DNA from: Nanobdellota archaeon
Lineage (GTDB): Archaea > Aenigmatarchaeota > Aenigmatarchaeia > QMZP01
Direction of reading: 5' to 3'
DNA length: 52,704 nucleotides
NCBI GenBank assembly: GCA_043814765.1
Contig: JBDRJQ010000035.1
Span: 1 to 52,704, forward strand
Part shown: one piece after another, positions 26,193 to 26,570 of the stretch
Position numbering within the stretch: position 1 is the stretch's first letter
Layout: the number at the start of each line of letters is the position of its first letter
Position numbers and translations under genes: made by a program
Notes under the pieces: model-generated
Database searches by the model: none
The model's input: only the letters and a program-made list of their open reading frames with translations
Told to the model about the DNA's origin: nothing

Positions 26193-26570
26193 ATGGTAGA
26201 AGCAAAGTTTCTAAGAAAGAACGGTTACTGCATTGTTGACGGGGAGCCATGTAAAGTTCTGAGCGTACAGATTTCCAAGACAGGAAGGCACGGCCACGCG
26301 AAGTGCAGAATAGAGGTCGAGGGACTCTTTGACAGTAAGAAAAGGATATTTTTCAAGAACGGAGACGCCGACATGGAGGTTCCTACAATAAAGAAGGGTT
26401 CGGCACAGGTGCTTTCAGTAAGCGGTGATATTGCCCAATTAATGGATATGGAAGATTACTCTACTTTCGAGGCAATGATACCAGAAGAGCTTAAAGCAGA
26501 AGTAGAGTCTGGTAAAGAAGTTATGTACTGGAAGTGGGAAAACAAGCTTGCAATACAAAGCGTTAAATAA
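26193..26570 (+). CDS. eif5a: Translation factor aIF5A with Arg at the hypusine site
   Basis: VDGEPC, SKTGRHGHAK, GLFD, VPTI and QLMD motifs. Confidence 0.95.
   Translation: MVEAKFLRKNGYCIVDGEPCKVLSVQISKTGRHGHAKCRIEVEGLFDSKKRIFFKNGDADMEVPTIKKGSAQVLSVSGDIAQLMDMEDYSTFEAMIPEELKAEVESGKEVMYWKWENKLAIQSVK

Follow-up and report, generated by a model that had tools for sequence, protein, structure and literature searches.

The window analyzed here, a 52,704-nucleotide stretch of DNA, comes from the genome of a Nanobdellota archaeon (referred to as G000), an 859-kb MAG that is 88% complete. On its plus strand, the genes for the ribosomal proteins S2, L19e, and L18 (24419-26173) are tightly packed with a 125-aa aIF5A gene (26193-26570, plus strand), such that the stop codon of L18 at 26173 is separated from the aIF5A start by 19 nt carrying a Shine-Dalgarno-like GGTG at 26185-26188; the four genes are presumably co-transcribed. 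Further downstream lie a 97-aa membrane ORF and, in convergent orientation, a TtuA-like PP-loop gene (26930-27853, minus strand), giving the order PAC2 - enolase - S2 - L19e - L18 - aIF5A - 97-aa membrane ORF - TtuA-like. The TtuA-like gene is a conserved downstream neighbor of aIF5A in relatives carrying either Arg or Lys at the hypusine position of the factor (referred to as Arg-type and Lys-type), and is used here as a context marker only. Its product contains SGGKNS, and the orthologues in two relatives (G031 and G021) contain SGGKDS.

The aIF5A protein, which begins MVEAKFLRKNGYCIVDGEPCKVLSVQISKTGRHGHAKCRIE in the ORF translation of 26193-26570 (plus strand), was identified with curated HMMs, an AF2 model, and Foldseek. 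It scores 128.7 bits against the aIF5A equivalog model TIGR00037 (curated cut-off 75.45) and 139.3 bits against the aIF5A equivalog model PRK03999 (curated cut-off 138), its Pfam domains PF21485 (58.7 bits) and PF01287 (29.3 bits) both exceed their cut-offs, and the EF-P model TIGR00038 yields 29.5 bits, far under its cut-off of 185.8. The AF2 model, obtained from 55 homologues with a pLDDT of 94.4, displays the two-domain fold of the family, an N-terminal SH3-like barrel with an exposed β3-β4 hairpin and a C-terminal OB fold, and Foldseek matched it at a TM of 0.93 and an rmsd of 1.5 Å to both 1bkb and 8put_E, the aIF5A chain of an aIF5A-DHS complex. By sequence and predicted fold, the product of 26193-26570 is an aIF5A, and it is the single match in the genome in a search at E <= 1.

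Compared with canonical archaeal aIF5A (PDB 1BKB, 1IZ6, 2EIF, and 8PUT; Haloferax and Thermococcus, PMC5178350), the protein belongs to the same family by curated HMMs and has the two-domain fold in common (TM 0.88-0.93). The S, K, G, H, G, and K around the loop tip are retained, the TtuA-like downstream neighbor is shared, and in both cases the gene is single-copy and highly conserved. The differences are an Arg in place of the modified Lys, a Thr in place of Pro at position -2 from it, and the gene for deoxyhypusine synthase (DHS), which is usually adjacent in the organisms of this family and is here deleted and not found in the genome.

The arginine at the loop tip

In the AF2 model, residues 28-36 form a loop joining the strands 18-27 and 37-44, and S28-K29-T30-G31-R32-H33-G34 (26274-26294, plus strand) make up the tip of the β3-β4 hairpin, on which canonical aIF5A bears (deoxy)hypusine. 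The segment containing R32 reads QISKTGRHGHAKC in the ORF translation. Arg32 is encoded by AGG at 26286-26288 (plus strand) and Thr30, at position -2, by ACA at 26280-26282 (plus strand). In HMMER alignments to PDB 1bkb, 1iz6, and 1eif, R32 lines up with the GKHG Lys, so the reading of an SKTGRHGHAK loop with Arg at the hypusine Lys, given in the initial annotation of this DNA, is correct to the base. Within the (S/T)-K-x-G-K-H-G pattern expected of aIF5A/eIF5A, the Lys at the tip is replaced and the other loop residues are kept.

The hypusine-site Lys is present in all 243 of the other aIF5A sequences gathered, and Pro occupies position -2 in 188 of these. Twenty distinct Arg-type sequences were retrieved from a 5.8-billion-protein collection covering ENA, JGI, Logan, and NCBI assemblies. 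They are just 51-58% identical overall and identical in the loop core S-K-x-G-R-H-G (n=20), with S28, K29, G31, R32, H33, and G34 invariant in 20/20. T30 is found in 19 of them, the exception being P0291 with Pro, and together with A4 and G57 (19/20 each) it marks the Arg clade besides R32. A short N-terminus was also considered as an Arg-type hallmark and was dropped once further members turned up.

When an Arg-type profile was run against 1.84 billion representatives, no GRHG protein appeared among the best 150 matches, presumably because the Arg-types sit in 50%-identity clusters with Lys-type representatives. A divergent aIF5A-like family was also encountered (121-127 aa; P0169, P0189, P0216, P0230, P0243, P0248, P0249, and P0265-P0267), one member of which is encoded at L205 8001-8366 (NCBI GCA_030651135.1, 'Ca. 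Woesearchaeota'). The loops of this family read V-V-T-G-T-H-S-H-T-K or V-V-S-R-H-S-H-T-K, with Thr, Ser, or Arg at the hypusine position. P0243, at 99 aa, has a truncated look, and P0267 has no Pfam match on record.

The Arg could be an artefact, in the form of an AAG-to-AGG sequencing or assembly error, an AGG codon decoded as Lys, pseudogenization, or the presence of DHS and a second, Lys-type copy in the unassembled 12% of the genome. AGG differs from AAG by one base, the MAG is 88% complete, and no reads matching the region were retrieved, public sequencing runs matching either the 1.4-kb region or the gene alone not having been found. However, four species-level genomes and 20 protein clusters from independent assemblies have this Arg. 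In the comparison suggested as a check in the initial annotation, it is shared by related DPANN sequences, being encoded by AGA in one relative (G001) and by AGG in two others (G021 and G027). S-K-T-G-R-H-G is identical as protein in these four genomes with 5/7 codons differing synonymously, and because the same Arg is written with different synonymous codons in independent assemblies, sequencing error at this position was ruled out.

Codon reassignment was ruled out by the use of AGR at conserved columns. The nearly invariant arginines R39 and R51 of the same gene are AGA and AGG, respectively, and at the columns of EF-2 and SecY that are >=90% Arg in relatives, G000 uses AGA 15 times, AGG 8 times, and CGT once; AGR never occurs in this genome at conserved Lys columns. 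Only ten tRNAs were recovered from the genome with aragorn, too few to be of use for the tRNA-Arg and tRNA-Lys set. Between G000 and its sister species in genus g1 (G001), pN for aIF5A is 0.10 against a pS of 0.77, the latter being saturated, which speaks of strong purifying selection, and the constraint is greatest in the loop. This is the sole aIF5A and not a decaying copy beside a second, Lys-type one, a situation that would have undone the original proposal; the pattern of substitution shows a functional gene maintained by selection.

Deoxyhypusine synthase in Arg-type genomes and their relatives

The cognate DHS that accompanies an aIF5A/eIF5A was not found in G000, the PF01916 search giving no match at E <= 1 in 859 kb of an 88% complete MAG; the same search finds DHS in 4/4 archaeal control genomes and in two bacterial ones. 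The three other Arg-type genomes (G001, G021, and G027) likewise gave no match to PF01916, all four MAGs being 70-88% complete, so that the DHS co-absence check suggested in the initial annotation came out in favor of its proposal. Among 60 relatives, DHS is present in 52 of the 53 with a Lys-type aIF5A and in none of the four with an Arg-type (Fisher p = 1.3e-5 for the 57 relatives with an aIF5A sequence). At the level of the phylum, it was detected in 323 of 371 sampled genomes from 170 genera, including 96 of 98 high-quality ones, and is missing from 4/4 Arg-type genomes compared with 44/367 others (Fisher p = 2.5e-4). Arg-type aIF5A is present in 4/371 of these genomes, belonging to three genera of one family, namely g1 (G000 and G001), g21 (G021), and g27 (G027). 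DNA-pattern scans for G-R-H-G in an aIF5A context, which miss Arg-type loops departing from S-x-x-G-R-H-G-x-x-K, detected an Arg-type in these four genomes only, and the remaining matches were chance occurrences outside aIF5A.

The gene order around aIF5A gives this absence a position. DHS adjoins aIF5A in many Lys-type relatives, as in the orders L18 - x - DHS - aIF5A - TtuA (G032) and PAC2 - DHS - aIF5A (G012), and it is adjacent or near in G012, G013, G014, G024, and G008. In the genomes G000, G001, and G027, and also on the P0291 contig, aIF5A(-TtuA) comes straight after L18 with no DHS between; in the window, the place at which Lys-type relatives have DHS is the 19-nt L18-aIF5A spacer (26174-26192). 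Because the syntenic position is empty and L18 directly abuts aIF5A, DHS is considered to have been cut out of the site next to aIF5A that it ancestrally occupied, and not simply to have escaped an incomplete bin, a deletion shown by synteny and statistics in MAGs of 70-88% completeness. The order S2-L19e-L18-aIF5A was also considered as proof of common descent of the Arg-types and was rejected, the Lys-type G032 showing the ancestral order with DHS between. The emptiness of the DHS position on contiguous sequence in five independent contigs, together with the statistical association above, also counts against the artefact reading, which, given the codon usage and selection described in the previous section, retains a very remote likelihood. 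With the Lys replaced and the DHS gene deleted, it follows that (deoxy)hypusination of this aIF5A is not possible.

DHS loss does not require Arg, as two other lineages keep the Lys. In genera g169 and g170 of the f40 lineage (G359-G370; L145, L148, and L158-L168), 12/12 genomes of 65-94% completeness are without DHS and keep the Lys, within a loop reading G-K-T-S-K-H-G-E-A-K as opposed to the canonical S-K-P-G-K-H-G; in the sister genera g167 and g168, DHS is present and the loop is canonical. The g169/g170 lineage is another one devoid of DHS, larger than the Arg-type one and with its loop changed in a different way. In genus g9, DHS was found in neither genome (75% and 80% complete), and one of them (G031) encodes a Lys-type aIF5A with the canonical SKPGKHG at L101 10876-11253, in the order L18-aIF5A-TtuA with the DHS position empty. 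The G031 protein is a weakly supported sister of the Arg clade in one tree and may represent an intermediate stage, with DHS already gone and the Lys not yet exchanged for Arg.

Aside from the aIF5A locus, a spermidine-synthase-like gene (PF01564, 112 bits) is encoded outside the window at C36:7089-7634 of G000, despite no DHS having been found there. Polyamine supply was considered as the driver and rejected: this SpeE-like PF01564 match exists in G000, yet just 16/61 genomes have one and most DHS-positive relatives are without it.

Origin and probable spread of the Arg-type gene

In an aIF5A tree of 84 sequences, the 19 K-T-G-R-H-G proteins form one clade with a support of 100/99, which is retained at 98/98 after removal of the loop columns. 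P0291, reading K-P-G-R-H-G, nests within the Lys-type, DHS-positive group of genus g10 (support 100/99). Because P0291 branches apart from the main KTGRHG clade, the tree indicates at least two separate origins of the Lys-to-Arg change in this family. The P0291 gene occupies L189 10001-10381 (ENA ERZ27256796, JGI 3300017991, Logan SRR6963352), and no DHS was found within 10 kb on either side of it.

The main Arg clade is at odds with the trees of EF-2 and SecY, a conflict suggestive of horizontal spread. In these trees, G021 joins the Lys-type, DHS-positive G016 and G008 with supports of 100/99 and 98/98, respectively, and genus g1 is placed elsewhere. AU tests rejected the grouping of G021 with G016 and G008 on the aIF5A data (p-AU 0.001), and conversely rejected a clade of G000, G001, and G021 on EF-2 (p = 0.0016) and SecY (p = 0.04). 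G021 carries SecY and the Arg-type aIF5A on a single contig, about 1 kb apart; this layout recurs on an independent 297-kb contig, whose SecY also takes the same place in the tree. The simplest reading, and a fairly likely one, is that in the G021 lineage a Lys-type gene was horizontally replaced by an Arg-type one and DHS was lost; the estimate is set no higher because the organismal signal consists of two markers, EF-2 and SecY, and the groups to be tested were chosen with the trees already in view. G027 is without both markers.

The EF-2 genes themselves are interrupted at or before the P-loop in L079 (G006), L085 (G013), L092 (G005), L093 (G037), and L094 (G021). In G006, a 1255-aa frame carries an insertion straight after DHGK with an intein-like look; in G013, G005, and G037, the frame starts only at DHGKTT with in-frame stops upstream; and in G021 the gene is split in two pieces.

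How the factor may work and what it means

A parallel is found among bacterial EF-P factors. Lys-type EF-P requires Pro at position -2, Arg-type EF-P is under strong selection against it, the Arg-type EF-P studied depends on rhamnosylation, and unmodified E. coli EF-P K34R has about 20% of its activity left (PMC6544042). Thr30 in combination with Arg32 looks like the same -2 rule arising independently in an archaeal factor. As in the Arg-type EF-P activated by EarP (Pseudomonas, Shewanella, and Neisseria; PMC6544042, PMC5615199), the present factor has Arg (R32) at the equivalent β3-β4 tip and a small hydroxyl residue, Ser or Thr (here T30), at -2 where Lys-types have Pro, the Lys-to-Arg switch having taken place inside an otherwise conserved factor. 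In contrast, the Arg is followed by the H-G of aIF5A and not by N-A-A, the 125-aa protein has two domains rather than the three of EF-P, and no EarP homologue was found in G000.

Unmodified EF-Ps also exist, such as the PGKGP subfamily of Actinobacteria and others, in which a factor of the superfamily works without a modification enzyme and loop composition compensates (bioRxiv 10.1101/2023.09.18.558224). Those proteins are bacterial, have their Lys flanked by prolines, and were tested experimentally. EF-P variants are further described as moving horizontally and displacing the ancestral type (PMC11388002), as the evidence suggests here. By analogy, the Arg-type aIF5A may work like Arg-type or unmodified EF-P without belonging to those bacterial families.

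The account moderately favored here is a hypusine-independent aIF5A, that is, a factor under selection whose DHS has been lost, whose Arg32 is probably unmodified, and whose re-tuned loop gives weaker but sufficient help. Briefly, the hypusine Lys has been replaced by Arg via a single AAG-to-AGG transition; the protein would still bind between the P and E sites, the Pro-to-Thr change at -2 would re-tune the loop as in Arg-type bacterial EF-P, and peptide-bond formation would be assisted less strongly, yet sufficiently. Because such a solution would need one gene and neither enzyme nor polyamine, it could arise repeatedly and be transferred, and it has probably moved between genera horizontally. 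The initial annotation had proposed a modification-independent aIF5A in which Arg mimics deoxyhypusine, or else a new Arg modification. Of this, independence from hypusine is well supported by the shared Arg, the lack of a detectable DHS, and the lack of a second copy; mimicry by an unmodified Arg and a new Arg modification would both fit the sequence data.

Demand for the factor may be low in G000, where the predicted ORFs (~790 of >=100 aa; 250,276 aa) contain 14 PPP motifs at an observed/expected ratio of 1.0, compared with 14 in 114,937 aa and a ratio of 1.74 in a Lys-type relative (G033, 400 kb). The densities, 5.6 and 12.2 per 100,000 aa, differ with p = 0.03 in a comparison with a single relative of different GC content, and polyproline depletion was set aside as a weak, two-fold signal from that one comparison.

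A bare Arg is not generally sufficient, because yeast eIF5A K51R fails to support growth (PMC9117371), and hypusine independence with an unmodified Arg would presuppose that the ribosome or the factor has changed in compensation. The same yeast result lends weight to a different reading, in which an unrecognized archaeal enzyme modifies Arg32, for example by glycosylation, methylation, or ADP-ribosylation, and so restores the reach and chemistry of hypusine, as EarP rhamnosylation does for EF-P. Arg-type EF-P, with its shared avoidance of Pro at -2, depends on such a modification (PMC6544042), and an invariant SKTGRHG loop would suit an enzyme recognition motif; however, the invariance is indiscriminate because the canonical aIF5A loop is invariant too. 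An EarP-like gene, whose presence had been put forward as a check, failed to appear in G000 (PF10093, even at E <= 10), and the Arg-type genomes, at less than 1 Mb, have few spare enzymes.

Nor is there a modifier candidate beside aIF5A common to the Arg-type subgroups, the 97-aa TM protein, orf122, and orf113 found there being mutually unrelated. The conserved 122-aa ORF between aIF5A and TtuA (L097 3318-3683, minus strand; L192 10477-10845, plus strand) has no Pfam match, is 67% identical between two assemblies, and is restricted to the G021-like Arg-type subgroup. Modification of Arg32 by such an enzyme is considered unlikely, although the yeast result makes it a rival to be taken seriously, and it is rather unlikely that a new Arg-directed chemistry, performed by an enzyme unrelated to DHS and EarP and perhaps traveling with the Arg-type gene, has replaced hypusine. 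Were the latter true, the EF-P/IF5A hairpin would have a fourth independent chemistry, and Archaea their first besides hypusine.

A further reading holds that aIF5A gave up its role at the peptidyl-transferase center and was kept for RNA binding, ribonuclease activity (cf. Sulfolobus aIF5A), or E-site occupancy, the identity of the tip then being irrelevant and Arg the nearest tolerated neighbor of Lys. Non-ribosomal activities of aIF5A are described (PMC9599864), the loss of DHS in Lys-keeping lineages suggests a relaxed need for the modification in DPANN, and the polyproline load of G000 is low. On the other hand, an unconstrained tip should vary, whereas Arg32 and its neighbors are invariant in 20 sequences despite synonymous turnover, and the coordinated Pro-to-Thr change points to re-optimization of the loop and not to neglect. 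A lost role is accordingly held to be improbable. Hypusine independence with a re-tuned loop remains the favored account.

Archaea and eukaryotes are generally considered to have hypusine without exception and to depend on it. Full-text searches covering aIF5A, DHS, DPANN, and arginine gave no report of an Arg-type aIF5A, and a 2026 review of these factors mentions no exception. In G000 and some of its relatives, hypusine appears dispensable, and their Arg-type aIF5A is, as judged from gene sequence and genome content, a factor without two of the traits by which the literature defines the family, namely the hypusine Lys and DHS. A natural Arg-type, DHS-less clade under selection shows that hypusine is not indispensable to the IF5A scaffold, which either functions without it or can be brought to do so, and such a protein offers a way, provided by nature, of probing the contribution of the 4-aminobutyl extension at the peptidyl-transferase center. 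The Pro-to-Thr change at -2 provides a sequence rule common to Arg-type bacterial EF-P that is open to mutagenesis, and caution is advised before DHS or GKHG is used as a marker for all archaea. Taken together, these observations extend to Archaea the emerging view that EF-P/IF5A factors switch their modification and are replaced horizontally.
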